Shown: positions 4,421 to 63,407 of the stretch, in pieces | Numbering within the stretch: position 1 is the stretch's first letter | How the letters are laid out: each line of letters starts with the position of its first letter | Origin: Octopus vulgaris | Lineage: Eukaryota | DNA length: 64,000 bases | Assembly (NCBI GenBank): GCA_951406725.2 | Contig: OX597818.1 | Location: forward strand, 27,776,001 to 27,840,000 | Reading direction: 5' to 3' | Translations under genes and position numbers: made by a program | Notes under the pieces: generated by a model | Database searches by the model: none | What the model saw: only the letters and a program-made list of their open reading frames with translations | Told to the model about the DNA's origin: nothing

Positions 4421-4451
<31 letters not shown>

Positions 4452-9041: not shown

Positions 9042-9079
<38 letters not shown>

Positions 9080-9088
9080 CATATGTGT

Positions 9089-9129
<41 letters not shown>

Positions 9130-9723: not shown

Positions 9724-9877
9724 AGAAGTGGTTATGTGGTAAGAAGCTTGCTTCCCAACCACATAATTCTGGGTTCAGTTCCACGGTGTGGCACCTTGGA
9801 CAAGTGGCTTCTACTATAGTCTTGGGCTGATCAAAGCCTTGTGAGTAGATTTGGTAGATGGAAACTGAAAGAAGCCT

Positions 9878-9960
<83 letters not shown>
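9724..9960 (+). mobile_element. SINE family A, 5' half, followed by a (TA)n run
   Basis: gaagtggttatgtggtaagaagcttgc...gaaactgaaagaagcc, then about 80 bp of (TA)n. Confidence 0.85.
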
Positions 9961-9963
<3 letters not shown>

Positions 9964-10299
9964 GTATGTGGATTTTTTTGTTTTTTGGTGGAGATTTGGG
10001 TTGTTGTTAGCATTTGATTTTTATGATTCATGTACTTTTTGCCTTCTTGGGTCTTAGCTCAATAATTGTATGTTCTGATTGATAATACTGATAATACTGT
10101 GTTTATTGTGGTGTGGGTTGTAATAACAGGTAGAGTTTTGGCTTTATCTGAACTGTTTTTGGTCTTTCATAATTCTTCAATGTCTTTGGCCTTGGCATGT
10201 TCAGTTCTATTCTCTATTAACTTAGACAGGCACTGTCTTTCAAGTACAACCTGTTATATATTTTGGGTGATATTAGGTAACTAGTAGTTAAGTGTATCT

Positions 10300-12900: not shown

Positions 12901-13964
12901 ATAATTTGAATGTATATTGTGAATAGATAAGAATAATAGATCCAGACAGGTACCATTCAAGCACTCTAGTATGATCCAGGTTCTGGCAAACCACATCAAA
13001 TGATATGGAATAAATGGAGATTTTTTGAGGTAAACAAACTCACAGTATTTCATCCAATGGGTAAATCTTGAGTTCACTTTGTTGGATATAGTTTACTGAG
13101 TGCATATTCAAGACATTAAAATAAAAATAGAGAATTATACACCAATGTAGTTTATTATTATTATTACAGTCTCTTATGCAATATATTCTCTTTAAACCTC
13201 CATCTGACATATGTTTCTGCTGCATGAGTATCTTATGTGATGTCCAATTGCATCTTGTTGGTTTGGCTGCATTAAATTATCCATGCAGCATTATTCAAAG
13301 TGTTGCCACTAGTAAAGCTTGATGTAAACTAAAGTATAACAGTTTTGACAGCCTTATATTTTTAGACTGGATTAGAGTTTTGAGTTTAATACCACCCAAC
13401 CTGAAGAAACATGCAAATACTTTAGAAATATCCTACAATCTTGTAAATCAGTTTTACTTGTAACTGCATGCATACTGCATAAAGTACTGTCTGTCTGAGA
13501 TCCTTGTTGTGACTTGACACATAGTTCAAACTCCTGGTACAAACAACATCTTTGATCTACAATATCACAATATTAGATTCTGTGCAATGTCTTCAATAAT
13601 AATAATAAATCAGAATCAGAAAATAGACATGGTATTCAACACATTGGTCATACATGAAATTCTGCAAAATGCCAAGATAATTATATTGCAGTTGTAGAAA
13701 CATAATGCAACTACAGATGTCAAAGCTCCAAATATATACACTTTTCTTGTTATTAGAAAACGTATATATTGTTGAAGCTTTAACATCTGTTGTATTTATT
13801 GAGAGACAGTGAGGAGGTCAAGTGCAAGATTGCATAATGTTTCTTCAACTGTTCAATAATTACTTAAACATTTTGTTGAAATGCTTATATGTCCTATAAA
13901 GAATTGAATACCATACAGGTTTTCTGCTTATTATTATTATTATTATTTCTATATAAAACAGTAA

Positions 13965-14105
13965 GCTGCCTCAATTTTTACTGCACTGGGCAAAATGCTT
14001 AGCAGCATTTCTTCTGACTTTATATTCTGATTTCATGTTCCACCTGAAGGCGACTTTGTCTGTCATCATTTTGGGTTGATAAAGTAAATACTTGAGTCAT
14101 TGTAA
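13965..14105 (+). mobile_element. SINE family B fragment
   Basis: gggcaaaatgcttagcagcattt...gactttgtctgtcatcattttgggttgataaa; related pieces at 15488-15612, 16521-16790, 24440-24645, 30488-30710 and 53590-53800. Confidence 0.65.
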
Positions 14106-15799
14106 TCAAATAATTCCATGTGCTTGAGAAGACTCATCCAGCTAAGTAAAAATCAAGACCACAAAGGCATGTCATTTACATCTATGCTCCTGGCAAACTT
14201 CTCTCCCATAACCCATACATCTCCCCCTTCCTGCCACTCATGTTCACTACTCACTGTATTTCTCCCCTTTATCTCTCACTCCCTTGTTGCAAACTTGCAA
14301 ACCTATCTGCACAGAATGTGCCCCTGTCAAATCTTTTCCCAGCAATATATCCTCCTAACACTCCCCTTCTGTCTGCTTGTGTCCACTTGCTACAGTCCAG
14401 CACTCTCTCTGCTTTTGTACTCGCATGAACTTACCCACCTCCTCAAACTATCCAATCCTTGATTCCACATCACTTATTTACACCTTCCTGTAACTTGAAT
14501 TATGTTTTCATTTTTTCTCTCTCTCATCCTCCCTTTCTCTCTTCAGCTGAGGTAACCATGTATCTCCTCTACTGCAAGGTAACTATTTCTGTCCCTTCAT
14601 TCATGCCTTAAACTTACATCACCTGGCATAAACCCACTTCTTTCCATGCTATTCCTCTCTTCTGTTGAATGGTCTTCTCTTACAAGTTACTTAATGACCT
14701 TGCTACTGCTGGTGCCATGTAAAACTGGAAGAATCCCACCATATGTATGTCTAGATGTATGAATGCATGTTTATGTTACTGTCTTCTTGCCCCGACATTA
14801 TATGCTAATTGTAAATGAGTGTCACCATCATGCATATGGTGCTTTTTATTTCCAATCTTCTGTGAAAACATGTCTGTTCAAAATGGAAATATTACCTTAT
14901 TTGGAAATAGGTGACTGATGTCAACAGGAAGGCATCTAGCTGTAGATAATTTGCCTTCATGTCCACCGTTCCATGTGAGCATGGAACAGTTAACATTAGA
15001 ATTGTGATGATATGCACACGCAAACACATGCATGCACACACACATGCACACACACAAACACATACACATGTACATGTACATAAAATAATAAGAATGGACA
15101 ATCACAGTTCAGTGAAACATGTGCTTATCCATCAGTAAGATGTCCATCTAATTACATATATAATATAAAGATATCTACTTCCACATCAGCTACTGGACTG
15201 CCAGATATCAAAATCAACCATGCTTACATTTTGACTGTAATTAGAGAGAAGAATATAACTTAGTTGCTGAAGCTATCTTTGGGAATCTACCATGCAATAT
15301 CCTCTCCTGCAAGTCAGGTAATTTCTGTTCTTTTTTCTAGTCTTTAAGTTTGTTCGGTGTCATTAGTAAGTATAGAGTCTGTCATTGTTATTTTCGGAAA
15401 TAGAAGTTCAATAAAAATTAGTCAAATAAAATAATGACTAAAAATGCATGTGTTCTCAAATACTGTCCACACCCTGCATATAATAGGGTAAACTTTGCCT
15501 TTCATCCTTTTGGGGTTGATAAATCAAGTACCAGTTGAGTACTGGGGTCAATATGATTGACTGTCCCCCTCCACAAAATCCAAGCCTTGGGTCTACAGTA
15601 GAGAGGATTATCTTATATTAAGTCTGCTTGTCATTCTGTTACTTAGCCCATATGTAATGCTATCACATGATTAGTTGAAGAGAAAAGTGAAGAGCAATAG
15701 AAAAAGAGGGAGAAACAGAAGAGAGTGAGAGAGAGAGATAGAGAGAGTGAAGCATTCATGATATGAAGTAGGGAGAATGTGGGGGTAGTAGTGGGAGTC

Positions 15800-15982
15800 T
15801 AGGGCATTTACCTCCCCCATGGACAATAACCCCCAAGGACATCAGATGATGATATAAAACTTCTTAATATATTGAAGAGGGGGGAATTAACCAAGAGTGG
15901 TAATTGTCTTAGGGTGTAATTGTCCTGGGGGTAGTTATCGTTGGGGAGAATTGTCCTATGGGGGGGGGAGTAATTGTCCTGA
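15800..15982. mobile_element. Short MITE-like element with multimeric subterminal inverted motifs
   Basis: Left side has ggacaataaccccc / catttacctccccc; right side has several copies of the complementary gg..taattgtcc motif. Confidence 0.5.
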
Positions 15983-17025
15983 TATGAGTGGTGGTGATGG
16001 AGGTGGCAGTGGTGACTGGAAAGTGAAAAGTGTATTTTTATTTAATTGAACTAAGTTTTTTTTTTATATCATCTATCACTTAATGCATGCACATAAGTAT
16101 AATTTCATGAGATATTCTCATTTATTTATGTGACAGATGCATGCAGTTTGACTAAAGGCTGTATCACATGTTCAGCAATTTTTTTTGTTTATGGGGAAAA
16201 TGGAAAACAAGAATGAATATTTATTTTATGAGTGCTGTGTATTAAGTCTATAAAATTGTGCATAAAGTGTATATAGTGTATATAGAAGGTACATTAAGTA
16301 ATCATTGTATTTCAGTTTCTTTCACTTTTCAATCAGTTGTAGATGAGTGACTATCTTTCTATGCAGACACAACACAGGCTATGCTTTCAGGTTTTTTGGA
16401 AAAAGTTTTCAGAAATAACCCAATAGGTTTACCATTAATTCCATGAAATATTCATGGGTCCCACTATTATATTTAATTATTACTATCCTCATCATCACCA
16501 CCCCTCTCATTGTCATTGTCAAGGTGGTGATCTGGCAGAATTGTTAGCTTGCCAGAAAAAAATGCTTAGTAGCAAAAGTAATTATTACTATCATGTGGTA
16601 AATAAGCAGCATCAGTAGGGCATGGGACAAAATACTACGCATTATTTAGTTAGGCCTGTTTACATTCTAAGCTCAAAGTCCAATGAAATTGATATTGACT
16701 TTCAACTCTTCAGGGTCAAGAGAAGAGAGAACCTATCTTGGGGGACTGGTAGTGAGTAAGCCTTACTTCTCAAAATTGCTGACTTTTTACCTAATTCATT
16801 ACAATTGTGCTTTTCTCATAAAATTTATTCTTTTTTGCCAATGTTCAAATATTTATCAATATAGAATTATACTTAAAACTTTTTAAAAATGGTTATTTTA
16901 TTCAAAATATACTTCTGTTTTGTTTTGTTCTTTTATTTCTTATGTTTTTTTATTAAGTGCAGGTATTTGGTTTTGCTTGGAATAATTTTTCTTTCTTTTA
17001 ACTTTTTATGTTCTGAAATTCATAG

Positions 17026-17283
17026 ATTCTCTAGAAAGAGATGACATGACACTAAATGTTTCAGGAGGAAAAGTATGTGTTGATACTCCAACCAAATTCC
17101 GCTGCAGTTGGAAAGGTGGTGATCCTCCAGTAAGTGTAACCTTGATGTACAAAAATATATCAAATACTAGTAAAGAAGAAGTTGAAGTTACTGTAACACC
17201 TTCTGAATCTCATCGAACAGTCAAATGTCTGGGAACTCATATTGCTGCCAATGTGTCTCATGAAAAGAATTTTACTATTTATT
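17026..17283 (+). CDS. Ig-superfamily receptor, Ig-domain exon A (first recognisable exon; upstream exons not found)
   Basis: Acceptor catag|AT (an in-frame alternative ctag|AA starts at 17035); donor T|GTGAGT; phase 1-1. Peptide SLERDDMTLNVSGGKVCVDTPTKFRCSWKGGDPPVSVTL...TVKCLGTHIAANVSHEKNFTIY, with the Ig Cys pair and a GGxP motif. Confidence 0.88.
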
Positions 17284-19534: not shown

Positions 19535-19789
19535 ATCCACCTAAAACAATAGAAATCAAGACTGATGAACCCTTTCTTGAAGGTCGCAAAGGTATTTTGC
19601 ATTGTAAGGCAATAAATGGATATCCAGAAAAGTACAGCTACAGGTGGGATCCAAATAACAACGCCTCACAAAATTTGACACTTTCTCGACTCAGTCGAAC
19701 ACAAAATAATAAGGTTTTCATCTGTTATGCTTCTAACATGTGCAATAAAGAAAGAGAATTACGTAAAGTACATTGGATCAATGTAGAAT
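19535..19789 (+). CDS. Ig receptor, Ig-domain exon B
   Basis: ttccctttgtacag|AT ... GAAT|GTAAGT, phase 1-1. The spliced junction gives YPPKTIEIKTDEPFLEGRKGILHCKAINGYPEKYSYRW...LTLSRLSRTQNNKVFICYASN...WINVE. Confidence 0.92.
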
Positions 19790-24853: not shown

Positions 24854-25102
24854 ATGTACCTGATATTATTGCATCAGAGAATATGACATTAATTGAGAAT
24901 CAAGCATCCATTGTAAACTGTTCTGCAAAAGGAAACCCTATCCCAGAAGTGAGGCTGGAATATGAAAATCAAAGTTTTCCTTCAAACTCCCCATTCACTT
25001 TTAATCGCAGAAATAGCAGTGATGTTTTCTGTGTTGCCAATGCAAAGAGCACAAAGCATGGAAATTTGACATCTAGAAAGAAAATTAATATCATGTTGAA
25101 AT
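24854..25102 (+). CDS. Ig receptor, Ig-domain exon C
   Basis: tttttatag|AT ... AAAT|GTATGT, phase 1-1. YVPDIIASENMTLIENQASIVNCSAKGNPIPEV...DVFCVANAKSTKHGNLTSRKKINIMLK (CxAxGNPxP motif). Confidence 0.92.
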
Positions 25103-27219: not shown

Positions 27220-27474
27220 ATCCTCCTCAAGTAAACATTCATATTTCAAATGAGACAAATAATACTTTACTAATTAATTGCACTGCATTTGATGGAAATC
27301 CAGAAAAATATGAATACAAACTGAAGCAAAAATGGGGAAACATCACTAAGAATACTTATAATATAAATGTATTATCAATAAATAATTCTACTTTCAATAA
27401 TACTGGTACATGGGAGTGTCATGTAAGCAATGAAGATTTTCATGTGAGTAAATCATCAAACTACAAAATTCCAG
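27220..27474 (+). CDS. Ig receptor, Ig-domain exon D (absent from the ORF track)
   Basis: ttctttttaag|AT ... CCAG|GTAAGT, phase 1-1. Hand translation: YPPQVNIHISNETNNTLLINCTAFDGNPEKYEYKLKQKWGNITKNTYNINVLSINNSTFNNTGTWECHVSNEDFHVSKSSNYKIP (xTGTWEC F-strand motif). Confidence 0.92.
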
Positions 27475-29667: not shown

Positions 29668-29976
29668 TGAAACCTATTTTCAGTTCAATATCAAACGATG
29701 CGAAAAAGAAAAATGTTTCAATTGGAGAATCTGTAATTTTCAAACAGTGTTTTTATTCACATCCAAAATCTGATGTAAAATGGCAAATAAATGACAAATT
29801 AATTGACTTCAACAAATATTTAACAACTGATTTTGTATCAAGTGATTTTCCTTTCAAAGGAAGCTGTACTCATTTAAAAACAGAAGACATCAAAGATAAT
29901 GATATTAGAACTTATACCTTAACATTGGAAAACTCTGTAGGAAAAGAAGTGATAACTTTTACCTTGAGGCATAAAG
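29668..29976 (+). CDS. Ig receptor, membrane-proximal atypical I-set-like exon E
   Basis: tttttttccaccag|TG ... AAAG|GTAAGT, phase 1-1. VKPIFSS...VSIGESVIFKQCFYSHPKSDVKWQIN...DIRTYTLTLENSVGKEVITFTLRHK. Confidence 0.9.
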
Positions 29977-33597: not shown

Positions 33598-33699
33598 AAA
33601 TTACGGAAGTCACTTTGGGAACAATTATTGGTTGCTTTGTAGGAATTGTATTATTAATAACTTTGGTACTTCTTATTTATAAAAGCCACAAAATAAGAG
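33598..33699 (+). CDS. Ig receptor, transmembrane exon
   Basis: atcttttcag|AA ... AGAG|GTTGGT, phase 1-1. EITEVTLGTIIGCFVGIVLLITLVLLIYKSHKIR: a hydrophobic helix followed by basic stop-transfer residues. An alternative donor TG|GTATGT lies after 33703. Confidence 0.88.
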
Positions 33700-34624
33700 G
33701 TTGGTATGTTTTATACATTATAAGTGTCTGTCTATCTGTCTATCTATCTATCGAGAGACTTACACACATACACACACACACACAGATATATATATATATA
33801 TATGACAGTTTCTTCAACCTATAGACCAAAATCCTGTTGAAGGTCAAACTTTGGCCTTTCATAAGCTGCAAAAAAGCATAAAATGCTTAGTAAAATAAGA
33901 TTTTCTTTTACTGTAAAACTTCTTTTGTATAAACATGCACTCATTTGTATCCAGTCAAACTTTTTCTTATGAGATGGTTTCTATTTTTAAAGCCAACTTT
34001 GTTCAAAACTCACTTTGTGCAAACATGCACTAATAGTTTTTCAGAAAACAATTTTTTATATGAAGCAACTTTTTCATCTTAGAGTAAAGCATGAAAAACA
34101 ATTAAAATGTGGGAAAACTAAATGAAATGTTTTTAAAAAATATTTCCATAGTTTTCAAATGCAAAGGACATTTTCTTTTTTTCTGTCTCTCTGTGTCTCT
34201 CTTTTTTACTCTTGTGAGGGCTTGGTAGCAGGTAGTAGTAGTAGTCCTAATATTTGATATGAGTTCTTGGTTTCGATTGTTTAAACAGCAGTAGTAGCTG
34301 AGAAAGGAGGTGGTGAAGAAAAAGAAGGAAGATGTATGTGGAAGTGGTATGATAGTAGGAGGATATTGGTGGAATGCTCTTAAATGGTCAAGTAACTTAA
34401 AAGTGACCTGTTGTGGTTGTAATAGTAGTGATTGGAATTGTTCTAAATAAATTCATGGGTAGTGACTGTTGTGAATATATTGTTTTTAATATTTGCACAG
34501 GTATCATTCTAAGGCCCTTGTAGTAGTGTCATTTGTGGTGGACGCATTCAAAAGGGGTTTATATTTTGTAATAAAATAACCTATACACCTATACACCAGT
34601 CCAATAATAAAGAAGAGGAAACAT

Positions 34625-36190
34625 AGGAATAGGAAAACTATCTGGTTCACACACCCCTACTCACCCGAAGTGACCTTCAATATAAGCAAGTATTTCTTAG
34701 CACTGATAGATAGACATTTTCCAGTCAACCATACTTACAGAAAGCTCTTCAATAGACATGACTTAAAGATCAGTTTCAGCTCAACTACTAATTTTAAAAA
34801 TATAATCGCACACAACACACAAAAACCACAATATGAAACCAGCTGTTCATGCAGGGATAAAAATTTGTGCCGCTAAATGGAGCTTGCCTGTCCGAGACCA
34901 TTTATGAAGCCACCGTGGATTCTATATCCACTAAGGACACAGTTTCGATGAAGAAATATGTGGGCTTTGAAGAGGGTAATTTCAAGGCCAGGTTCACTAA
35001 TCACACCATGAGCTTCAGGCACTGGGATAAAAGGAAAATGACCAAATTATCCAGTCATATATGGTCCTTAAAAGATAAAGGTGTCAGTTACAACATCCAT
35101 TGGAAGATCTTAGCCAAGTGTTAGCCCTACACCAACGGCAGTGGAAAGTGCAGTCTTTGTGATATGGAAAGATGGCACATCTGGAAAAGCAGCTTAGACC
35201 CCGCCCCATGTCTAAATTCAAGAACTGAACTTTTTAGTTCATGTGGCTAAATATTTGTTACGTTTTTGGTCCCCCTAAAATTACAGATAGGATATGCTTT
35301 CTATATTGTGTCCACGTACAAGCTTTTTATCTCTCTATACTTTTTACTTATATTTCTTATATATTTTTATATACTTTTTTACATATTTATAGAGATATTG
35401 CTCATATTTTTATAGGTTTATTGCTCATATTTTTTACACATATTTTTTCTTTAGTCTACCTTCCACCCTGCATTTTCCTTGTGCATATATAGACGTGTAT
35501 ATGGAATCTTTTGTGTGCGTGTGTGGATGTGTGCATGTGTGCGAGTATGTGCATATATTGATGCATTTTACTCTAATTGCTTATTTTTTACACATTTTTT
35601 TACACATTTTTCTGTATTTTGCCTTTAGCCCTGTTTTTTCCTGTGCATGTGCGTATATTGATGTGTACCTTTTTTGTGCGTGTGTGTGTGTGCATGCATA
35701 TATAGACGTTTGCGGGTATGTGCGCATATAGACGTGTGTGTGCATGCATACGAGTATGTGCATATATAGAATGTGTGGGTGAGCATGTGTGTGTTTCAAG
35801 TGAAGGTGGATGAGTATATACTTATAGGCACATGTACGTGGGTGTTCGGGCGTGCATGTGTAGGTATGGACATGCGTGCTTATGCGGATACCATGAACAT
35901 TTTTACTCCCTTACCTTTACTCCCTCCCCTCACTTAGCGGTCATTCTAATAGCTCTTTTGTCTTAATAATGGTTAATCACACAGTAATTTCTCTTTGTTT
36001 AACGGTCATTTTCATAGCATTTTTTCGATGGCTGGATAACTGAAGAGATGGCGGCGTGGGTTTCCACCTCAACATCCAAAACTTGGAGTTTTATCATAGC
36101 TACCGAATAATTGTCACATATTATATTTACAGATAAATTCCTCTATTAACATAATACTTTCATTCTTTTGTTGTCTTACCATTTCTATCA
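34625..36190 (+). mobile_element. 5'-truncated Penelope-like element: thumb, GIY-YIG endonuclease and long 3' region
   Basis: IWFTHPYS..FLALIDRHFPVNHTYRKLFNR..CSCRDKNLCPLNGACL..IYEATV..KYVG..FKARFTNH..TKLSSHIWSLK..WKILAKC..KCSLC..E..LNSRTELFSSC. Confidence 0.88.
36029..36102 (+). ncRNA. Degenerate type-I hammerhead-like motif at the 3' end of the Penelope-like element
   Basis: uggcuggauaa-CUGAAGA-GAUG...CAUC-caaaAC-uugga-GUU-uuaucauagcua. Stems I and II pair, but the GAAA core reads CAAAA. Confidence 0.5.
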
Positions 36191-36201
36191 ATATATATAT
36201 A

Positions 36202-36601
36202 TACTCTTACTCTCTTTTACTCTTTTACTTGTTTCAGTCATTTGACTGCGGCCATGCTGGAGCACCGCCTTTAGTCGAGCAAATCGACCCCGGGACTTAT
36301 TCTTTGTAAGCCCAGTACTTACTCTATCGGTCTCTTTTGCCGAACCACTAAGTGACGGGGACGTAAACACACCAGCATCGGTTGTCAAGCAATGCTAGGG
36401 GGACAAACACAGACACACAAACATATATATATATACATATATACGACGGGCTTCTTTCAGTTTCCGTCTACCAAATCCACTCACAAGGCATTGGTCGGCC
36501 TGGGGCTATAGCAGAAGACACTTGCCCAAGATGCCACGCAGTGGGACTGAACCCGGAACCATGTGGTTGGTTAGCAAGCTACTTACCACACAGCCACTCC
36601 T
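36202..36601 (-). mobile_element. Full-length, relatively young SINE family A copy
   Basis: CpG-rich reverse complement of family A with intact A-box and B-box (tggctgtgtgg / gggttcagtccc); (TA)n on both sides. Confidence 0.9.
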
Positions 36602-37269
36602 ATATATAAATAAGTACTCATGTCGACATAGTTGTACAAATATCCATACTCAACTCCATGCATAAATATATTCATGTACATAGATACACCTGCACATAAA
36701 TCTATACGTATATTTATGTATACATATACTCATATACTCACATGTGCCTAGACATATGTATGCACATATGTACACATATACAAATGTACTGGCAGGTTAC
36801 ACAGATATAGTCATATGTATATATGCATATAAATTTATATACATGCATATAAATAAAAATATAAAAATGTGTGTGCATAACAAGCATCAAATAGTTGTTA
36901 AGGGTGTGTTAATGGGGTTATTAATGCAAGATAGGTGTGTGAATAATAGTCAAACGGATATAAATGTTGCCAAGTGCATATGTTCAAATGTTTGAATAAT
37001 AGTCAAACAGTTATAAAAGTTAGCAATTGTGTATACTCAAATGCTGGTAGGTTACTAATGATATGTACAAAAGGTTAAATTAGTAGAGGTGGTTGGTATA
37101 AGATAATGCTAAATTTATGTGTTATAGAGGTAGATATTTATATAATTGATAGTGTAGTTAGATAAGATTTATGGGAGAGGTAATTTATATTTGTAAAGCT
37201 AGGGAGTTAAAAGGGGTTGTACAAATATTTCAGTGAGAGAGATAAGTTAATTATTTAAATTTAGAAAAT

Positions 37270-38520
37270 ACATATTTTCCTGCATGAATGCAAAAAATAT
37301 TTTCCTCATTTATAAGTTAAGTTGGATATTCTTAGATCTAATGATAAGGAAAGCTTCAGTGATACAAAGATGATATTTTTTTGTTGTTAACTTTTATAAG
37401 CCAGTGCAGAAGCAATGATATCCCATTCAGTTTCAAAGTCAGTATTAGTATCTTTTAATTCTCATATAAATTTACTTAATCCAGTGGAATTGGTTTTCTG
37501 CTTATTTTTAAAAGACTGGAGATTATTTGCCACCCAAGTCTCAACCTTATTTTCAATCAAGCTAATATAAAAATAATTCTTGCCTTGAGCTTTAACAGTG
37601 CATTGATAAACAACATTTTTACTTTTACATGAATTCTTAAATTTACCATTATTTTTAACTCTACAATCACAATTTTCATAAATATTGTTATGTATGGATC
37701 TATTAGAAGAAATTGTATTAGCAGTGTTAGTATGGGTTGTTATAGTTCCATTATTGGGATTTATATGAGCATAATTATTAGGGTTAGTGAAATTTGCGAG
37801 ATATATTTTAAGTTCAAGGGAGTTAGAATTATTGTTATGGACATGTCTATTGGTGTAGAATTGTTTAATTTCCTGTTGTTAATGGATGATGTAATAGTAA
37901 ATAAGTTATGAGTGGGGCTAAAACCTATCTTGACAGTTTTGTGGTTTATGATTTCATTTATTATGAATTTATTATTTGTATGATTTGTATTTATTATGAA
38001 TGTTAAAGTATTTATGAATGGCTTTAAATATAGTTTTAATTATGTTATTTTTAATTTGCATTGCATATAGAATAATAAACCATATTTTATTAGCATAACC
38101 AGGGTGATTATAATTTATGGGTATATTATAATCTATTTTAGGTTTTTTAGAGTTAATGAAGTGAGTGTGTGGTTTAATATTATTGTTATTCAGGGCATTA
38201 TATGGATTAACAGTGGTGCTGGTATCATAAGTGATTAATTGATTATTGATATTACTATGCTTATTAATTATGTTATTATCGTTGTAGCAATCATTACAAT
38301 TGTAAATTGGTTGTTTATTATTTAAGTTGGGTATATAACTTAGTAATAGTTTTTCTATTATAATGTTTGATACTATTAGTTTGGTTTAAAATAATCTTAG
38401 GTTTGTTATCGTTATCAATTCCTTGTTTATGTAGTTGGGTAACTAGTTATATGCTTATTTTTTAATTATATTACTATTTATGGTGGGATTATAAAATTTA
38501 CCAGTTTTATTTATTTTTGT
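37270..38520 (-). mobile_element. Decayed Penelope-like element, GIY-YIG end
   Basis: Minus-strand translation CDCRVK..SCKSKNVVYQCTVK..FYISL..SFKNKQKTNSTGLSKFI*ELKD..EWDII..HLCITEAFLII. Confidence 0.75.
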
Positions 38521-38694
38521 TTTTGCTTGTAAGAGGCTCAAATGTCGATGTGTTCACTGAATGCTATATTTCTGTATTCCTGGATTTTGACCTGAGATCT
38601 ATGTAGAGCCATCATTCATTTAATTTTTCCGCAATTTAATTGTGTTTAATATTGAATAACATTTCTATACACATCACTTTTTTTCTTTTTTCAG

Positions 38695-38713
38695 CTGTGA
38701 AGTGCAAGAAAGA
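38695..38713 (+). CDS. Ig receptor, cytoplasmic micro-exon 1 (19 nt, phase 1 to 2)
   Basis: ctttttttctttttttcag|ctgtgaagtgcaagaaaga|GTAAGT; reads (A)VKCKK. Confidence 0.72.
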
Positions 38714-39257
38714 GTAAGTATATAACATTTTTACCTGTTGTTTATTTGTAAAGTAGAGAGGAAATTTCTCTCAAAGATTAACTTTCATCAATCATTAAGT
38801 TTACATCATAATATACATGCTAATGCTTTGGCAATTTACAGAAATGTTGCAGTTTAGCTGAGGTTAAAATGCATGTGAAATTTTCTTCCATATATTTTGT
38901 TGAAAATGATATTAGCTATCAACTAATAATATTTTTTTCTTTTCGTGCTTGCCTCAATACACTTATGCATGTCAATGTTTTAATAATTAAATATGCTTTC
39001 AACAACATGTTTATGTAATTATCACCTGGATGGCACTTGGTTTCAGTTTAATTAATAAGTATATTGTCTAGTGTGTCTAGTATTATATTAGAAAAGCTCT
39101 TATTTGCTTTGAAATTTACATTAGCTGCTTTTTCAATACAGATTTTATTTTAAAAACTATTCATTGTTTCTTGCTATGGATAGTAAGACAAGGAAAGTAA
39201 ATTATATTGTAAAAGAGAGTTGTCAGTTCTCTTTTTTGAGAGATGTGACATACAGTT

Positions 39258-40690
39258 ACAGAAGTGTATGCTGGCATCCACCAAGGTTCAGATCTCAGTC
39301 CTCTTTTATTCATCATAGTCCTCCAGGCAATAACAGAGGAATTCAAGACGGGTTGCCCCTGGGAGCTCCTCTATGCTGATGACCTGGTCCTCATGGCAGA
39401 ATTACTACCAGAACAAGAGAAGAAATTTCGGGTGTGGAAGCAAGGTTTAGAATCAAATGGCCTTAGAGTCAATGTAGCAAAGACCAAAGTTCTAGTAAGT
39501 AGGAAGGCAAACTCACAATACACCCCCTTAGGTAGGTGGCCTTGCTCGATCTGTAGAAAAGGTGTAGGTAGAAACTCCTTAAGATGTACCCAGTGTAAGC
39601 TATGGGCACATAAGTGTAGCAACATCAAAGGAAAATTAACCAAGAAGATAGCTTTTATGTGCGGCAGATGCACAAGGGCAATAGACACCATTGATACTGA
39701 AAAAACAGATTCCATCACACTCCAGGGTGAGAAACTAGAAGTAGTTGATAGTTTCCGCTACCTAGGTGACCAAGTTAGTAGTGGGGGTGGATGCTCAGAA
39801 AGTGTTACCACTAGAATAATAATAGCCTGGGCAAAGTTTAGAAAGCCTCTTCCCCTACTGGCAACAAAGGGGCTCACACTCAGAGTGAAAGATAGATTGT
39901 ATGACGCATGTGTGCAAACTGCTGTGCTTCACGGCAGTGAAACATGGGCTGTGACTGCGGAGGACATGCGTAGGCTTGAAAGAAATGAAGCTAGCATGAT
40001 CTACTGGATGTGTATGGTCATGTACTATGGATGGATGAGGAGAGATGTGTGAAGAAGGGCCACTCCCAAACTGTTGAAGGAATCTGGGGTAGAGGTAGAC
40101 CCAGGAAGACATGGGATGAGGTGGTCAAGCATGACCTTCATACGCTGGGCCCCACAGAGGAAATGATGAAAGACCGGGACCTCTGGAGATATGCTGTGAC
40201 TGCGAAGACCCAACAAATGAAGTGTGTTCATGGCTCACGGGATGGCCTGCTGTGCTAACCTTGGATCATAGAGTGACCCGCTGTGCTTGAGGAGACCTAT
40301 TGAATCAAGTACGTCAACACCAACATCAAAATAAAAATCGAATGGAAATTGTAGTTAAGATACCCGTGCTGGCGGCATGTTAAAAGCACCATCTGAACGT
40401 GGCTGATGCCAGCGCCACCTGACTGGCATCCGTGTCAGTGACACAAACAAAGAACCAACCGATCGAGGCCATTTGCTAGCCTCCTCTGGCCCTTGAGATG
40501 GTGGTATGTAAAAAGCACACACTACACTCACGGGGTGGTTGGCGTTAGGAAGGGCATCCAGCTGTTGAAATACTGCCAGATCAGACTGGAGCCTGGCACA
40601 GCCTCCTGGCTTCCCAGACCCCGGTCAAACCATTCAACCCATGCTAGCATGGAAAACGGACGTTAAACGATGATGATGATGATGATGATA
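39258..40690 (+). mobile_element. 5'-truncated RTE LINE with 3' UTR and (GAT)n tail
   Basis: ORF 39264-40052 GIHQGSDLSPLLF..ELLYADDL..VDSFRYLG..HGSETW, then GRGRPRKTW; ends ggacgttaaacgatgatgat. Confidence 0.92.
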
Positions 40691-53999: not shown

Positions 54000-54295
54000 G
54001 GGCTCTCCTGTCATTAGATGACATATGAGGATTCTGCAATTTCTTACTGAACAATCACACTAATGATTTGTTTATAGTGATAAAATGGTGGTGTTTGCAT
54101 AAGCTCACGCTTTCCATCAAATCAACATCATCTGCATAGATGCTTGACATGCCACATGTCAACAAAATGATCACAGAGCAATGTGAAATGAAGTGTTTGC
54201 TCAGGAACATAATGCAACACCTCGTCTGGGAATCGAAATCATGATCTCACAATTGTGAGTGCAGCACCCTAACCACTAAGCCATGCACCTTCACA
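54000..54295 (-). mobile_element. tRNA-derived SINE, family C
   Basis: Minus strand gtgaaggtgcaTGGCTTAGTGGttagg...ATTTCGATTCCc (A and B boxes); a related + strand copy lies at about 57193-57325. Confidence 0.7.
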
Positions 54296-54516
54296 ATATA
54301 TATATCTAGAACCACACCAATAGCTTAGGAACGAAATTTAGGATTTCTTGGTTTTCAGTGAATTGATTTTGATAAAACTTTCCTCAGCTGGTTTGCACAC
54401 TATGGCTACACCATTGTTATGTTTTCAGTATTCTGTGAAACGTCCTTTCTTTTTTATTTTAGGTTCTTCAGTTGTTGGGTGTATCACACTAATAGCATCT
54501 CTCCTCTCTAAGAACA

Positions 54517-55380
54517 ATGGGATGTGGAAAAGGCCTTAATAATGAAGAAAAGTCTGTCATCATCAAGGAAAGTGCTAAAGACATCTCTCTTGATGTAATT
54601 GCAGAGAAGGTTAAGTCATCATGTGGATACAGCTAGGCGATTCCTGAAGGACCCATCACCAAGGAAGAAATGATTCAGTTGTGGGACCTCCAGGACTATG
54701 ACAGCTAGGGATTTAAGGAATATTAGCTGCAGGTTACATGAGAAACCTGGACAAACAAGCAAAGCCATTTTCACCACCTCTGGACTTCCTTATGTACCAA
54801 AAACCACCAGAAATCACATCCTTGGGACTATGATTTCCATGCAAGAACCCCTGAAACTGCCTCCTTTAGCGTCCTGTCACAGGAATTTGAAGCTTCAATG
54901 GGCCCAAGAGTACATGATGTTAGAAGGAGTTGTGTTCTGTTCACTGATGAAACCAGGACAACCCTTGAATGACCTGATGGTTGGTCAAATGGTTGGGTCT
55001 ATTTTGGAGATTAGCATCACCAACGTTTACAAAGTCCACAACATGGTGGAGGAGTCATGTTGTGGGCTGGTCTCATTTGGACAGACTTGTTGGCCCAGTC
55101 AGGGTGCCTGGAGAGCTTAAAGTGACTGTAGCTGCCTACTGCAATCTTTAAAAGGAGGTCTTAGATTCATGGGTAGATGACATACCACTTTCACTTCTAA
55201 GGAATCTCATATTCACGCATGACAACACTTCCTCCCACTCTGCTGGGACCATCCAAATATTACTAGGGTTTTACAGCATACACGGCGAAAGGCTGATGGG
55301 CTGCCAGCATCTCTGGGTCTCAACCCTATGGAAAATCTTTAGTCCATCATTAAACAAGATGTTTATGCTGATGAACACCA
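54517..55380 (+). mobile_element. Tc1/mariner transposase relic
   Basis: Frameshifted fragments LQWAQEYM, VLFTDETR, GGGVMLWAG, LIFTHDNTSSH and LNPMENL (DDE motifs). Terminal inverted repeats not identified. Confidence 0.8.
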
Positions 55381-55729
55381 ATTTACATAAAAAAAGTCTT
55401 TCCTGAACATATTGGAGTAACCATTTAATTATTTTGATAAAATCAAGGCACCCTCTCTATATGGGCCAGAGGAGAATTACTTGTGTGTCTAGAATCAAGA
55501 GGTCTATAAACTCACATATGTCATCAGTGTCAAAGGCTCTTGCCACCAATGAAGGAGCCTTCTGGGTCAGTTTGCTTGACATTAACTCAACTTTTATTGT
55601 AAAACAGAATTTCCTGACATGCATGATAATGTCTATGTCTCTATCATCGTTTTAGCATTTAGCAAATGTGAGTGCCTTATATAACAAGTCCCTTGACATA
55701 GTTGAATAAAAATCACTGTCATCATCCCA

Positions 55730-57150
55730 TCATCATCACCATCATTTAATATCCATCTCTCATGCTAGCATGGGTTGGATAGTTCAACTGGATCCAATGA
55801 GCTGGAAGACTGCACCGAGTCCTAATGTCTGCCTTGCATGTTTTTTATAGTTGTCTGCACTTCCAAATAACAACCTTTTTACAGGGTGTGTTGGGTACTT
55901 TTTCATGGCACTGGCATTAGTGAGGTTGCCTAGTAACTTTCAAGACAAAGAATCCCCCCACCACCACCACCACCACCTCAACTGAATGGAGATATAGTAC
56001 AGAAGGATGTGGGTTTATTCCATGTATTGAAAGACTAAAGTATGATAGAGAGACAGGCATAGGAGTTTTGTTGTGGAGATACAAGGTTATGCTGCAATAT
56101 ACATTGGTGGGTGAGAGTAGCTAAAACAAGTGATAAAGATGGCAGTGATGTGTTGTTAAAATGTTTTCTTAAAGTAAAAGAAGGTAAATATAAGAGGAAA
56201 CATGGACAGACAATTGGAAAGGGTGGAGAGCAGCAGTATAATAAATCTGTAGATAGATGAAAAATAGGGAAATGATGTGTGGAGAGGGGAGAAGGTGAGA
56301 GAGATGTACATTGACAAAGATAGAGGTCATAAGAATGTAAAGGTAGATATAGTGAGTGGCTAACATGGAAGTGGGTGTCAACAGCAGGTGTGAGAGGGTG
56401 TTGAGAATGATAGAAGATATGAGACATTATTAAAGATGAGATATGGCAGTCATAAGATGTTGCTCAGCAGAAAGTGAGAGATAACTGGAGGCAAAGAAAA
56501 GAGTGATCAGTGGAAAATAATGTAGGAAAGGATGATATTGAGAATTAGGGGCAGATTTTAAAAGGAATTGGTTCCAGTGAAAAGGATAATTGGTACCACA
56601 AAAAGGAAAGGAAATATGTACAATTCTGCTCACATATGCTGAATAGTGCTGAATTTGTTGAATAGTGCTATAGTTAGAAGAGTGATGGAGGAATGTTAGG
56701 CAGTTAAAGACAAAGGAAGGCTGAACATGGACAGATTGGGTACAGGGGCAGGGGCCAGTGAGTTTATAGGCATAATCATAATGCTTTTAGGATTTCGCTT
56801 TCACTGTGACAGCACTTCTGAAGCACAATAAATCCTCGATTATCCCAGTGCTTTTTGATTTCTTCTGTAATGATCAGTATCCTGACAACAGCCATGTCAG
56901 GATATTGTGTGACATTAAGTGATTGGCACTTCTTAGAGTAGCCATACTCATCCATACATTTCACATAACCATACCAAATAATCTCATCTCTTGCACATTA
57001 CATCTGATTCCTTTTATGCCCAATTTTTCTCTTCTCACATTTACACTTTGTTGTACATACACACTCACATTGTACATCCCATAAGTGTACTAGTTTCATT
57101 CCTTTCTAGTCTTTACATATTCTCTACATTCAACCCCTGTCTCACTAACA
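55730..57150 (-). mobile_element. RTE 3' portion with purine-rich UTR and (CAT)n tail
   Basis: catcatttaatatccatctctcatgctagcatgggttgg; the purine-rich stretch resembles 1-420; RT C-terminal remnant at 56930-57150. Confidence 0.6.
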
Positions 57151-57334
57151 TGTCTGTCTAGCTATCTCTCTATATATACGTAAACACACACAGTGAAGGC
57201 ACATGACTCAGTGGTTTTGGTGCTGGACTTACAATTATGAGGTTGTGTTCTTGAGCAAGGTGCTTTATTTCACATTGCTCTAGCTCACTCAGCAGTAAAA
57301 ATGAGTTGCAATGTCACTGGTGGAATTTTGGAAC

Positions 57335-59050
57335 AACACATCAATGGTCAGTGGTGACCACTTGACTTCTTCAGTAGACAGCTATGGCCTTCTGAACAAA
57401 AATACAATGCTTTTGACAGGGAACTGCTGGTTGTCCATCTAGCTGTCCGCTACTTTCACTATTTTCTTGAAGGCCGCACATTTACAGTGTTCACAGACTA
57501 CAAACCACTCACCTTTGCTATGAGCAAGCTCTCAGCACCTTTGTCTGCACACTAGTAACAACAGCTGTTGGCCATTTCTGAGTACACCACAGGCATCCAA
57601 CGCATAACTAGAAAAGCAACTCAGTTGCAAATGCACTCTCTCATGACCCTACCTGCTCTCACAACTACCAAGCCCCAATAAGGAAGGCCTGCATTATGAG
57701 GCTATGGCTGCAGTCCAACAGACAGATGACGAGAAAAGGCCCTACCACATTGCCATCATGTTCCTTTCCTTGCAGGATGTACACTTTGTTACAACTCTAC
57801 TGTGTGGTGTATCCACTGGGAAACCATGACCAATCATCCCATTAGGCTGGTGCAGGAAAGTTTTCAACATCATTCATAGACTGTCCTACTCAGATACTAG
57901 AGCTACATGGTACAAATTTATCTGGCACGGTATGGCCAAGCAAATTTGGGAGTGGAGCAAGAACTGCATCCCCTGTCAACAAGCCTGGGTCAATCAATAC
58001 ACCAATTATATATGTAATTCAGAAATAAAATACTATTTGCTAATGACATTAATTATACTTACTCTTTGGCTTGGATAAATTAGTAGCATCTGCACTTACT
58101 GCATCTTCGGCAACTATAAACCACCACAGGCTCATTTCAGCCACATCAACATTGACCTTGTTGGCCTCCTACCACCTTCACAAGATTGCTCGTACCCACT
58201 GACTTTGGTAGACTGCTATACTCATTGGCCTGAGGCTATCTCTCTCCAAAGTACAGAAACATAAGAAGCCAGCTGATCCTCCATCAAAAACTGGGTTGCT
58301 CATTTTGGTGTCCCAGACAACATCTCATCTGTTGGGGTCCACAGTTCACCTAAAAGCTGTGGAATGACCTTTTTGGAATCACAATGAAGTGCACAATAGC
58401 CTACCATCATCCATAGGCCAATGGGTTAGTGGAGAGATTTCACTGCGGCTTGAAGGAATTCCTGACAACCAGACTTAACTGGCCCAACTGAATTGATCCA
58501 CTTCTATTAGTGATGCTGGGAATCCCCACCACCCAAAAGGAACATCTTAACACTTCTTCTGCTGAAATGGTGTATGGTGCCTCTTTTACAATGCTAGGAG
58601 AGTTCATTCCAAACATGAAGTCAGACCCAGATTTCAAAAGGTACCTTGCGCAACTGAAAGACAAGTGTGGTCTAGTTGTACCTTATTCCCATGTCAACAT
58701 ACACCTAGATCATCTGTACTAAATGACTTCTGCTTGGCTAACCTTGTTTTTGTTCTATGTGACACACGATGAAAATCCCTCCAGTCACCCTACAATGATC
58801 CATATGAAGTCAAATGTCCAGAAGACAAATTATTCCAACTCCTAATTGGCAGACGACATGACATTGTTTCTATAGTTAGGATGAAACTGGTGTATCTTGA
58901 TATTGACAACACTTTCCAAATAAGCTCAACCACTAAACAGGGGCCACTCCAGGCAAATCACACCAACCCTTGGCAAGGAACAAACACCAAAGAGCCAAGT
59001 CACCACACGCATGGGCAGGGTAGTTAAAACACATTCCCAGTTCCAATGAC
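57335..59050 (+). mobile_element. Ty3/Gypsy pol relic (RNase H and integrase)
   Basis: YNAFDRELLVVHLAVRYFHYFLEGRTFTVFTDYKPL; CIPCQ; FSHINIDLVG; ANGLVERFH; SAEMVYG; LQSPYNDPYEV (GPY/F-like). Confidence 0.88.
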
Positions 59051-59330
59051 AGTCAACAGTAGGGCATTGCCCAAGGATTTATGACATATGAACTGTATAC
59101 AGTTACTTTGCTGCAGACTAGCTAGGGAGTTGACAGGTGGCTGTTGCCCTCATGTGTTCAACTAAATAAATCTTTCACTAACACATTCTGGGTCTCTGTT
59201 AATTTTTTGTGTATAGCTTAACTAAAAGCATATCATAAATATTTTTCTATATGTCCTAGAAATAATTCATTTCAGATACAATGCAGTGCTCATACAAGCA
59301 ATAAATGATTTTTCATTTTCTTTTTTAAAG

Positions 59331-59372
59331 ATGCAGTAAGTGCAGATGCTACTAATTTATCCAAGCTAAAGA
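59331..59372 (+). CDS. Ig receptor, cytoplasmic micro-exon (42 nt, phase 1-1)
   Basis: ttttcattttcttttttaaag|atgcagtaagtgcagatgctactaatttatccaagctaaaga|GTAAGT; reads (N)AVSADATNLSKLK. Confidence 0.68.
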
Positions 59373-59440
59373 GTAAGTATAATTAATGTCATTAGCAAAT
59401 AGTATTTTATTTCTGAATTACATATATAATTAATATATAT

Positions 59441-61405
59441 ATCATCATCATCATCATTGTTTAACGTTCGTTTTCCATGCTGGCATGAGTTGGACAGTTT
59501 GACTGAGGTCTGGAGAGCCAGTGGCTGCACCAGGCTCCAATCTGCTGTGGCAATGTTTCTACATTTGGATGCCCTTCCTAATGCCAACCACTCTGAGAGT
59601 GTAGTGGGTGCTTTTTACATGCCCCCGGCACAGGAGCCAGTCAGGCAGGCCTGGCATTGACCATGTTCAGATAGTGCTTTTTACGTGCCATCAGTGCAAG
59701 AGCCAAGTGGGGGTTACTAGCATCGGCCATGTTCGGATGGTGCTTTTTACATACCACTGGCATGGGAGCCAGTTAGGGGGCACTGGCCACAGCTACAATA
59801 TTGGTTTTACTTGATTTGACTGGTTTTCTCAAGCATATCATATTGCCCAACACATCAGGGGTATTCTTAACAGAGCTGGACATGCATGGCTGCAATCTCT
59901 CTTTAGTTGCCAGGTCTTCTCAAACACAGCATATCTCCAAAGGTCTCAGTCTCCTGTCATTGCCTCTGTGTGGCCCAATGTTTGAAGGTCATGCTTCACC
60001 ACCTCATCCCATGGCTTCTTGGGTCTACCTCTTCCATAGGTTCCTTCCACAGTTAGGGAGTGGCACTTCCTCACACAGCTGTCCTCATTCATATGTAACG
60101 CATGGCCATACCAGTGTAGATGCCTCTCTTGCACACCACATGTGATGCTTCTTATGCCCAACTTTTCTATCAGGGTGCTTACATTCTGTCGTGTATACAC
60201 ACTGACATTACACATCCAGTGGATCATACAAGCCTACGCATGGCCTCAGTATTGATGGCCCATGTTTCACTGCCATGTAGCATGGCAGTTCAGACACACA
60301 TGCACCATCCAATCTATCTTTCATCCTGAGTAAGAGGCCCTTAGTTGCCGGCAGAGTTAGGAGCTTCCTGAACTTTGCCCAGACTATTCTTACTCACTAT
60401 ACTCTCAGAGCAAACATCCCCACTACAGACTTGGTTGCCAAGGTAGCAGAAGCTATCAACTACTTCTAGTTTCTCCCCATGGCATGTAATGGAATCTGTT
60501 TTCTCTATATCTTCAGTGTTTATTGCCCCTATGCATCTGCCACATGCAAAGACTATTTTCCTGGTTAACCTACCTTTGATATTGCTACACCTCTTATGTG
60601 TCTATAGCTTACAGTGGGTACATCATATGGAGTTTCTACCCACACCTTTTCTACAGATCGAGCAGGGCCATCTACCTGAAGGGGATAACAATTTGACAGC
60701 CATCCTACTTACTAAGACTTTGGTTTTTGCTAGGTTAACCCTAAGGCCCTTCGATTCTAGACGTTGCTTCCACACCTGAAACCTCTCCTCTAGTTCTGAT
60801 AGTGACTCAGCACAGAGGAGCTCCCAGGAGCATCCTGTCTTGAATTCCTCTGTTATTACCTGGAGGACTACATCTACTTGGAATTCTTCACTATACTCAT
60901 TGCCAACCCTCACCTTACCGACAGCATCCCTGTACAGGACTTGTACAGCTCTTACCAGCAACTCATCTATCCCCAGTTTCCTCATTGACCACCAGATAAG
61001 GGATTGGGGGACCCTGTCAAAGGCTTTCTACAAGTCAACAAAAGCCAAGTACAGAGGTTTATCTTTGATTAGATATTTCTCCTGCAGGTGCCTTATCAGC
61101 AATATAGCATCAGTGGTGCTTCTGCCTGGCACAAAACCAAACTGCATCTAATCTAGGCTAACTCTCTGTCTAATTAGTCTGGCTATGACCCTCTCTGTAA
61201 CTTTCATCACCTGATCCAATAATTTGATACCCCTGTAGTTATTTCTACCTAAAGCATCACCTTTCCCCTTGTAGCAGTTGACTATGGTGCTGTTACATCT
61301 GTCATTGGATACGACTCCTTCATGAACTACCTGATTTACGATGCAGGTGATAAGATCATAACCCACACCACCCAATATTTTAAGCATCCCAGCTGTGACT
61401 TGCAA
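59441..61405 (-). mobile_element. RTE LINE RT plus 3' UTR with (CAT)n tail
   Basis: NYRGIKLLDQVMKV, KLGIDELLVRAVQ, EEFKTGCSWELL, GRGRPKKPWDEVV; repeats of about 56 bp in the UTR at 59600-59790. Confidence 0.9.
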
Positions 61406-63377
61406 GACTACAACAAACAGATGGAGGTTGAGAACTGAAACCTTATAAATCCCTACCTACACACTGAACTCATTGCTGACTTTCATCTTGCTAGCTGAAA
61501 CTCTTTACATGGCTTGTACAGTCCTCACAAACCATTTACCTATGTCTCATCTCCATGCAGCATTGCAGTTCGAACACAAGTGTCATACAACCTGGTTAAC
61601 AACATCTGGTTATCTGGCTGCTAATCCATGCTTCAAATACATATTCATGTAACACATGCTATCATGGGGAAATAAATGCAAGTGAACAATGGAATGTGTG
61701 TGTATGTGTGTCTGTATGTGTTTATATATGTATATATTTGTGTATGTTCATGTGTGTATACACACACACACACACACATTTACACGTAGTTAAGGTTATG
61801 AAAGCTTTCCCTACCTTCGTAACCTTAATTGATTTACCCAAGACATCTGTTCACTAGAACAACTGGTCCTTTCATTGGGTCGATACTGAAAAGACTCTCA
61901 TTCTCATGGAATCTTCATATCTAATAGCTTTCCATTGTAGCACTTGTGTCCCTCTAACTTTTAAGGATCAGTAATTCCAAGTGTGCCATTATCCACCAGT
62001 ACATAACTCTCTCCTGATATAAATTTGCACATTGATTAGTCAGTTGATTGTTAACATTGATGGTGTTGAAAATAGTTTTAATAGAATTTATTAGTAATTT
62101 GTCATTTGAGAAGAATTCAAAATGGGAAAAATGGTGAAACATGACATGATTTGGGTAATTCAGTTTCAGTAATATTAATGGGACCTGTAAATATTTCACA
62201 AAATTGATAGTAACCCTATTGGGTTATTTCTGGAAACTTTATCCAAAAAACCTGAAAGCATAACCTGTGTTATGTCTGTATGGAAAGATAGTCACACATC
62301 CTAAAATTCATTGAAAAATGAAAGAAATTGGAATACAATGATTACTTAATGCACTATATATACAGTTTATACACTTGATGCACAATTTTATAGACTTAAT
62401 ACACAGCACTCCTAAAATAAATATTCACTCTTATTTTTCCATTTTCCCCGTAAACAAACAAGAAAAATATCTTGTACCTAAGATACAGTCTTTAGTAAAA
62501 TTGCATATGTCTGCCATGTAAATAAGCGTTAATATTTCACTGAATTGCACTTACGTGCATGCGTTAAGTGACAGGTAATATAAAAATTTGGTTCAATCTT
62601 TAAAAAAATACCCTTTTTACTATCCAGTCACCACCACCACTGTCATCTCCTCTCTCTCTCTCTCTCACTCCTCTACCCCCCCCCCCCCACTGCCTTTCTT
62701 TAACCTCCATATTCGAACATTACCTCTCTACTAAAATTATAATTTTAACTCTCCTCCTCTAGCTTCAACTAAATTTTAACCACATAATATATATTACGAT
62801 CTCCCTATCACATGTCATGGACGCTTCTCTCTCCTTCTTTTTCTTTTCCCTCTTCCTGTCTCACTCTGTGCCTTATCCTCTTTTTCTCTCTCCTTTTTCT
62901 TTCTCTTCTCTTTTGCTTCAACAAATCATGTGAAAACATTACAATTACATTCCCTCTACCTCATAACATGGATGCTTCTCTCTCCACCCCCTTTTTCTCT
63001 CTCCCTCTTTTTTTCTCCTTCTTTTTCTCTAATCACATGAGAGCATTACCAATGGGCTAAGTAATGCAATGACAAGTAGAACTATTATAATATTGATTAG
63101 GCAATAAATATCTTGTACATTGAAATTTCTCATTAGAGAATAAGAACTTTTCTTATCTGAGAATCAGAAATTAAAACTGGTGCCTGATATGTGTTTATAT
63201 AGATATGAATATATATGTGTGTGCATGTGTGTGTGCTTGTGTGTGTGTGCATGTGTGCGCATGTGTGTGTGTGTGCTTGAGTCTATCATGTGTGTTCAGG
63301 TAGTCTCAGCACAGCCCAATATATTGTAAATATCATTTATAGCCATGTATCATATTCATTATTTTCTTTTCTTAAAG

Positions 63378-63407
63378 ACATGGATGATGCTTATGTTAAT
63401 GTTCTAA
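63378..63407 (+). CDS. Ig receptor, cytoplasmic micro-exon with YVNV (30 nt, phase 1-1); the gene appears to continue beyond the window
   Basis: attttcttttcttaaag|acatggatgatgcttatgttaatgttctaa|GTAAGC; reads (N)MDDAYVNVL. Confidence 0.72.
   Translation, partial: TWMMLMLMF

Follow-up and report, generated by a model that had tools for sequence, protein, structure and literature searches.

A cytoplasmic tail of about 20 tandemly duplicated mini-exons in a clustered multi-immunoglobulin receptor family of Octopus vulgaris

The locus considered here is a stretch of 64,000 nucleotides from Octopus vulgaris (assembly GCA_951406725.2, contig OX597818.1, positions 27,776,001 to 27,840,000 of the forward strand; hereafter the window). 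It raises the question of whether a chain of very small AG..GT-bounded segments, spread over 30 kb behind a transmembrane (TM) exon, encodes the signalling tail of a receptor, as proposed in a preliminary description made from the sequence alone. The window corresponds to G000:C5:27776001-27840000, and coordinates given here, including those that extend past its end, convert to positions on G000:C5 by adding 27,776,000. Our analysis revealed that the feature is real and larger than had been reported: the tail is an array of about 20 tandemly duplicated mini-exons (cassettes), most of them with a tyrosine motif, in a gene that belongs to a cluster of about ten relatives. That the exons are tandem duplicates, arrayed across a gene family, is the main point and one that the preliminary description had missed.

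Past the window, the tail array occupies 64066-96601 (+) and comprises eight intact A cassettes, eight intact B cassettes and three decayed copies, and the tail frame ends in a predicted stop exon at 105455 (+). The segments seen within the window are thus real parts of an incomplete chain, the tail extending about 41 kb beyond the window end. Cassettes of the family are tandem phase 1-1 exons of 42 nt with a Y-x-N motif or of 54-63 nt with Y-x-x-M; those of this gene beyond the window measure 42 nt (B-type) and 60 or 54 nt (A-type). The repeat unit consists of A, an intron of ~240 bp and B, and two such units share 97.6 % identity over 1.4 kb. The genome carries eight A cassettes of this gene versus three in the Octopus bimaculoides models. 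When the TM exon, every cassette and the seven immunoglobulin (Ig) exons are joined by coordinates, a single open frame of 996 codons results, running from Ig1 to the stop exon. The tail with its full set of cassettes is 328 aa long and contains 20 tyrosines, with four Y-x-N, seven Y-x-x-M and ten Y-x-x-I/L/V motifs; one of the 20 matches the consensus of the immunoreceptor tyrosine-based inhibition motif (ITIM; S/I/V/L-x-Y-x-x-I/L/V).

Within the window, the TM exon lies at 33598..33699 (+; 102 nt, AG acceptor, GT donor, phase 1-1), is present in the Octopus sinensis model P0001 and the O. bimaculoides model P0003 and is kept in six paralogues. All six segments proposed to follow it have an AG acceptor and a GT donor: 38695-38713 (19 nt), 45080-45096 (17 nt), 47499-47519 (21 nt), 53503-53544 (42 nt), 59331-59372 (42 nt) and 63378-63407 (30 nt), all on the + strand. 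The donor is GTAAG in five of them, the exception being 47499 (GTATTT); the spliced frame is open both with and without 47499, and the claimed total of about 170 coding nucleotides comes to 171 nt with it and 150 nt without. The first two segments are micro-exons present in RefSeq models. The 19-nt exon encodes a basic juxtamembrane segment and is found as 19 nt with AG/GTAAG in five paralogues, while the 17-nt exon is found as 17 nt in three, with one further paralogous copy that aligns with a gap at the acceptor. Their phases (1-2 and 2-1) make them frame-neutral solely as a pair, the 17-nt exon restoring the frame after the 19-nt exon; if one is skipped alone, a stop follows after a few codons. 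The two 42-nt segments, also in RefSeq models, are N-type cassettes: 53503..53544 carries an acidic Y-x-x-I motif and is homologous, flanks included, to eight other places, and 59331..59372 has no tyrosine.

Splice-site appearance by itself is weak evidence for these exons. Filtering 33701-64000 for at least 14 pyrimidines in 20, AG, 12-65 nt and a GTAAG donor gave nine matches on the + strand versus five on the - strand, and relaxing the donor to any GT gave 110 (+) versus 92 (-) candidates. The proposed segments account for four of the nine + strand candidates, including all three with a length divisible by 3; 45080 does not pass the pyrimidine filter. The five segments other than 47499 nevertheless stand above chance, because paralogues retain both their position and their splice sites and four of them occur in public models; on these grounds, chance was ruled out as their source.

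Annotation of the locus proved to be more advanced than expected. Automated annotation had been predicted to miss the small exons, yet counterparts of 38695, 45080, 53503 and 59331 are already included in RefSeq orthologue models of two octopus species, namely in P0001 and in the O. bimaculoides isoforms P0003 and P0018-P0021, five out of five. The TM exon and micro-exons are missing from some paralogue models (P0004 and P0016). The same six orthologue models omit both 47499 and 63378, the counterpart of 59331 joining the exon at 64066 directly. The first of these, a 21-nt segment (47499..47519), is probably intron and is no longer considered part of the tail: it was found in 0 of 200 fetched proteins, its region occurs at six paralogous places with the tyrosine replaced by cysteine in six of six, its donor is weak and its identity (34/42, against 0.82-0.87 in the flanks in two comparisons) is no higher than that of its surroundings. 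The second (63378..63407) is a real B-type cassette (YVNV) by descent, as judged from its paralogues, with only putative use. Its position is held by a 42-nt exon in three paralogues whose near flanks are 78-87 % identical, and an in-frame loss of 12 nt has cut it from 42 to 30 nt while leaving both splice sites intact. The O. sinensis model and the five O. bimaculoides isoforms all skip it.

The same modules recur across the cluster. The Ig8 exon has 11 full matches in the genome (seven on C5 and two each on C28 and C31), and C15 carries a broken match. Nucleotide searches of the tails of eight genes, some of them mapped partly, identified 102 modules, 86 intact (78 with a tyrosine) and 16 decayed, many by donor loss. 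Cassette calls demanded a length divisible by 3; without this rule, the first strong donor gives the same length in 41/41 B, 10/10 N and 22/35 A modules, while in the deviating A modules an internal site resembling a donor lies at +27 (12 modules) or +23 (one). If used, the +27 site, present in 12 of the 35 A cassettes, would yield a 27-nt exon that stays in frame but lacks the Y-L-x-M motif. In a flank-based tree, many B cassettes cluster by gene, suggesting that the arrays grew partly after the genes had split. The copies on C28 and C31 have identical scores and may be haplotype duplicates. About 180 kb from the tail of one paralogue is a second copy of it (G000:C5:28575225-28638366), with no adjoining Ig8 match; together with the near-identical genes on C28 and C31, it may reflect recent duplication or unresolved haplotypes. 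The last exon occurs both here (G000:C5:27881455) and at G000:C5:27535906; in this gene it is read as three residues and a stop, while the paralogue models P0013 and P0040 use another frame with a longer end.

Outside Octopus, a profile search, in which 10 of the 150 matches listed were looked up, returned relatives in Argonauta (GAB1598814.1, E value 1.7e-233), Sepia (CAE1168733.1, 1.8e-69), Potamilus (KAK3596202.1, 2.6e-20) and Mytilus (XP_071123167.1, 2.9e-9). The tail of the Sepia relative has Y-x-N repeats of its own, different in sequence, and the Potamilus and Mytilus tails carry strict ITAMs (immunoreceptor tyrosine-based activation motifs). In one cluster gene (G000:C5:29315545-29368318) and in the relative from Argonauta the tail is of another kind, its end resembling an ITIM or an immunoreceptor tyrosine-based switch motif (one match each in P0017 and P0056); this could be an inhibitory partner.

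Selection was found to act on the motif rather than on whole cassettes. The preliminary description had offered, as a check on itself, that the segments be better conserved than the flanking intron, and the tail exons are not: compared with paralogues, 608 of 825 positions are identical (0.74), against 0.78 and 0.79 in the near flanks and 0.57 in shuffled flanks, the far-flank identities taking in non-homologous DNA. We therefore rejected the statement that the exons are more conserved than the introns. The pooled ratio of nonsynonymous to synonymous substitution rates (dN/dS) of the tail is 1.16 (bootstrap 0.77-1.85, from non-independent pairs that share one sequence), and positive selection across whole cassettes was likewise rejected as the interval includes 1; the Ig8 exon gave values of 0.67 and 0.72. 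A dN/dS near 1 and an identity below that of the flanks mean that conservation does not extend to whole cassettes. We ascribe the low exon identity to fast protein evolution, because length, phase, splice sites and Y-x-N persist. Indeed, when substitutions in 40 B cassettes were counted on a tree for which only the flanks were used, the tyrosine and +2 asparagine columns had 8 amino-acid versus 10 synonymous changes, against 116 versus 18 in the other 11 columns (Fisher p = 1.6e-4). The +2 asparagine is the best held (3 changes), whereas the +3 residue changed 13 times. Tyrosine and +2 asparagine are thus held by selection, which supports the emphasis that the preliminary description put on Y-x-N.

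Upstream of the TM exon, the window encodes an array of Ig domains, with phase 1-1 in every Ig exon. Numbered by the eight-domain plan of the family, these include Ig4 (17026..17283, +, 258 nt; tblastn of P0001, 99 %), Ig5 (19535..19789, +, 255 nt), Ig6 (24854..25102, +, 249 nt) and Ig7 (27220..27474, +, 255 nt), also located by tblastn of P0001, with Pfam Ig_3 on residues 577-646 of P0001 for Ig7, and the membrane-proximal I-set exon Ig8 (29668..29976, +, 309 nt), identified by Pfam and by its 11 full-length genome matches. The Ig8 exon at 29668 matches at 100 % an O. sinensis RefSeq protein and 16 more proteins, the species-named ones all being from Octopus. This gene has seven Ig exons: an Ig3 exon was found in the genome (window positions 1-17026 and upstream) neither for it nor for its upstream neighbour, and is present in five other cluster genes, the Ig number differing between paralogue models. 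Pfam Ig_3 and I-set matches above cut-off, a TM exon and an open frame, with a signal peptide assigned from the P0003 model, identify the product as a type I receptor of the immunoglobulin superfamily, and the frame-neutral phase 1-1 cassettes agree with the proposal that its tyrosine motifs sit on separate exons. A Pfam scan of five models detected no Fn3 domain. The full-length structure model is poor (mean predicted local distance difference test score 36), with Ig2 its only usable region. Ig2 is predicted to be V-set-like, with Z scores of ~9-10 to CD8, NKp44, T-cell receptor and CD300 domains and root-mean-square deviations of 2.3-2.8 over ~95 residues; these matches are tied throughout and come from a low-confidence model, and other families may match too. 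An Atlas look-up returned generic Ig clusters only.

Whether cassettes are also skipped in transcripts bears on the earlier idea that exon choice tunes signalling output. The models of three O. bimaculoides genes, which are predictions, differ by whole cassettes, in agreement with that idea: a B cassette is absent from one of five isoform models of LOC106879981, those of LOC106874069 (15 of 17 members listed) differ by an N-type, an A and a B cassette, and those of LOC106869178 (15 of 16 listed) differ by several cassettes. Cassettes of unique sequence are among those by which the models differ. Skipping at the transcript level is probable on this basis. No sequencing run listed as RNA contains the Ig8 exon; fourteen runs contain it or part of it, their RNA origin being only a guess. 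When shorter proteins carrying the tail were sought, one match among 500 candidates and no transcript-derived tail came up.

Some models of the same RefSeq annotation join neighbouring genes. The first 322 aa of P0001 match the paralogue P0040 at 321/322 and its end matches the P0004 tail at 154/160, so that P0001 was rejected as a faithful single gene, its start belonging to P0040 and its end to P0004. Similarly, four of the five O. bimaculoides isoforms begin with the N-terminus of another model (P0021 vs P0055, 322/322) and switch at the Ig4 boundary. That models join Ig1-3 of an upstream paralogue to Ig4 (17026) is likelier to be an artefact than real cross-gene splicing. The alternative is a combinatorial system in which upstream Ig1-3 are spliced onto downstream bodies and cassettes are chosen cell by cell, giving an RNA-level repertoire of recognition and signalling strength from about ten genes. 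We regard this as rather improbable; if true, joins between genes would give a mollusc a new way of diversifying its receptors.

One cassette has an inverted counterpart. Exon 59331 and its donor region (59328-59431, +) recur 1.2 kb upstream as a 104-bp inverted copy (58004..58107, -; 103/104 identical), the sole inverted copy among the 102 modules, and an unbroken duplex between the two is predicted in the pre-mRNA. The surroundings of the copy resemble what we take to be a retroelement remnant. It has a proline codon, as do O. bimaculoides and a paralogue, where exon 59331 now encodes leucine; because the proline codon is kept in it, the copy likely predates the change. The modelled duplex might lead to A-to-I editing or mask the exon. 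Elsewhere in the introns, a trinucleotide run of ~1.4 kb (43190-44610) lies directly before the 17-nt exon, and just 3' of that exon (45223-45661) the open frames abound in Arg, Pro, Ala and Gly, in contrast to the intron around them.

Given the observed exon structure, duplication and decay of cassettes, clustered family and retention of Y-x-N, what might such a tail do? Phosphorylated Y-x-N is the signature bound by the Grb2 SH2 domain and phosphorylated Y-x-x-M that bound by p85. Our preferred reading, for which we would set confidence and doubt about level, is that the duplicated cassettes provide phosphotyrosine docking sites for Grb2- and PI3K-type SH2 domains in a likely activating, immune-type receptor. 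Ligand binding would cluster the receptor, a Src-family kinase would phosphorylate tyrosines preceded by acidic residues, and phosphorylated Y-x-N and Y-x-x-M would dock Grb2- and PI3K-type adaptors, so that cassette number might set adaptor count and signal output. Duplication and donor loss alter cassette number in the genome, and skipping probably does so in the transcript. An immune role is suggested by traits typical of immune receptor clusters (11 Ig8 matches, variable Ig number, a tail dN/dS of 1.16 with 0.67-0.72 in Ig8, and the V-set-like Ig2 prediction) and by the ITAM-bearing bivalve relatives.

Several results weigh against this docking model. The full tail of this gene contains no strict ITAM (Y-x-x-L/I-x(6-12)-Y-x-x-L/I) and no hemITAM (three acidic residues, x, Y-x-x-L); five looser Y-x-x-M/V-x8-Y-x-x-V pairs occur in it, each divided between A and B exons, and the strict form has one match each in the paralogue models P0012 and P0015. 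Several B copies of this gene have lost the asparagine or tyrosine, the Grb2- and PI3K-type assignments are putative, drawn from general motif specificities, and the tail dN/dS interval also fits drift. The best of 13 sequence matches to solved structures are weak and mix neural and immune proteins (Robo2, ICAM-1, Dscam and CD22). The RefSeq isoforms are predictions, reads from near-identical cassettes can be misplaced, and trust in these isoforms is lowered further because the same models join neighbouring genes.

The same modular SH2-docking tail could instead serve adhesion or wiring, as in nephrin/Kirre-like receptors of neurons, skin or suckers. Wiring receptors are usually conserved, with which an Ig8 dN/dS near 0.7 and a tail value near 1 sit poorly, as do the strict ITAMs of the bivalve relatives, and we consider this role unlikely, even though distant matches include a KIRREL-named mussel protein, Robo, Dscam and NCAM and PMC9712504 describes expansion of wiring receptors such as protocadherins in cephalopods. 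It is equally hard to favour a neutral origin, in which the cassettes are constitutive exons, the array arose by unequal crossing-over among repeat-rich introns, its size is neutral and mapping noise accounts for the skipped isoforms. Recent units that are nearly identical (up to 97.6 % over 1.4 kb), decay of 16 of the 102 modules, exon identity below that of the near flanks and a dN/dS of ~1 would all be expected from it, but not the hold of selection on Y-x-N, model differences that take out cassettes of unique sequence or a cuttlefish relative with expanded Y-x-N repeats of different sequence. Finally, the tyrosine motifs could be mainly clathrin-adaptor sorting signals of an uptake or scavenger receptor, and the ten Y-x-x-I/L/V and seven Y-x-x-M motifs fit the Y-x-x-hydrophobic consensus. 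This we judge very unlikely, since conservation of the +2 asparagine and turnover of the +3 residue are the opposite of what a sorting signal needs.

One docking motif per frame-neutral exon, gained by duplication and lost by donor mutation or skipping, would be a simple way to evolve signalling strength, and the 86 intact and 16 decayed copies form a natural series for how SH2-site number sets output. Few descriptions exist of immune and recognition receptors in cephalopods, and the family adds about ten concrete candidates now labelled 'uncharacterized'. It is partly annotated and apparently undescribed: no description was found in the literature searched, although one may exist in subscription journals or in further supplements, and no paper there mentions any of the six locus ids searched for. 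It is not mentioned in the available parts of PMC4199593, PMC9712504 and PMC11703226, and six O. sinensis ids are absent from the two supplements of PMC9712504 searched.

Among known receptors, LAT, CD28 and Met have Grb2/PI3K docking tails, and the octopus tail is likened to them by its Y-x-N and Y-x-x-M motifs, as read from sequence. Nephrin combines an Ig array with Fn3 and Kirre has five Ig domains; the octopus family does not fit this nephrin/Kirre (IRM) group, as no Fn3 was detected in the five models, the Ig number is seven to eight and Kirre-like proteins score far below the family. PECAM-1 is a single gene with six Ig domains and two ITIMs, and its tail exons are not a duplicate array. 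The octopus receptor differs in having seven to eight Ig domains, about 20 duplicated cassettes, Y-x-N with Y-x-x-M and a multigene cluster, and PECAM-1 was not among the 13 solved-structure matches, the six-Ig plan and orthology both being unsupported. Like the octopus protein, PECAM-1 is a type I receptor with several Ig domains and a tail divided among small exons; by alternative splicing of these, PECAM-1 gains or loses an SH2 site, loss of exon 14 abolishing SHP-2 binding (PMC5664058). Botryllus FcoR are also invertebrate multigene type I receptors with acidic residues before their tail tyrosine motifs, which splice variants and alleles swap; they differ in being fester-related (Sushi family) with ITIM and hemITAM, and no tandem cassette array is described in the part of PMC11507803 available. 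Hydractinia Alr are clustered invertebrate receptors of the immunoglobulin superfamily with divergent tyrosine-motif tails, as in octopus, and show alternative splicing, for which octopus gene models offer a probable parallel, but have one to three Ig domains plus an Fn3-like domain and true ITAMs/ITIMs, and their splicing swaps whole TM-plus-tail blocks (PMC9546547). Oyster CgIgR, which acts in hemocytes via Syk and ERK (PMC6994640), shares the multi-Ig, single-pass, tyrosine-motif plan (PMC6994640, PMC11999971) and differs in having five Ig domains and one ITAM; none of the fetched proteins contains this motif, and the resemblance is a likeness without established homology. The Argonauta, Sepia, Potamilus and Mytilus multi-Ig receptors share the membrane-proximal domain, TM segment and tyrosine-rich tail, but have shorter tails, with strict ITAMs in the bivalves. 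On sequence grounds, we place the octopus family in none of the PECAM-1, FcoR, Alr and CgIgR systems; it stands apart in that its one-motif exons form tandem arrays, which recur in remodelled form from gene to gene of the cluster.

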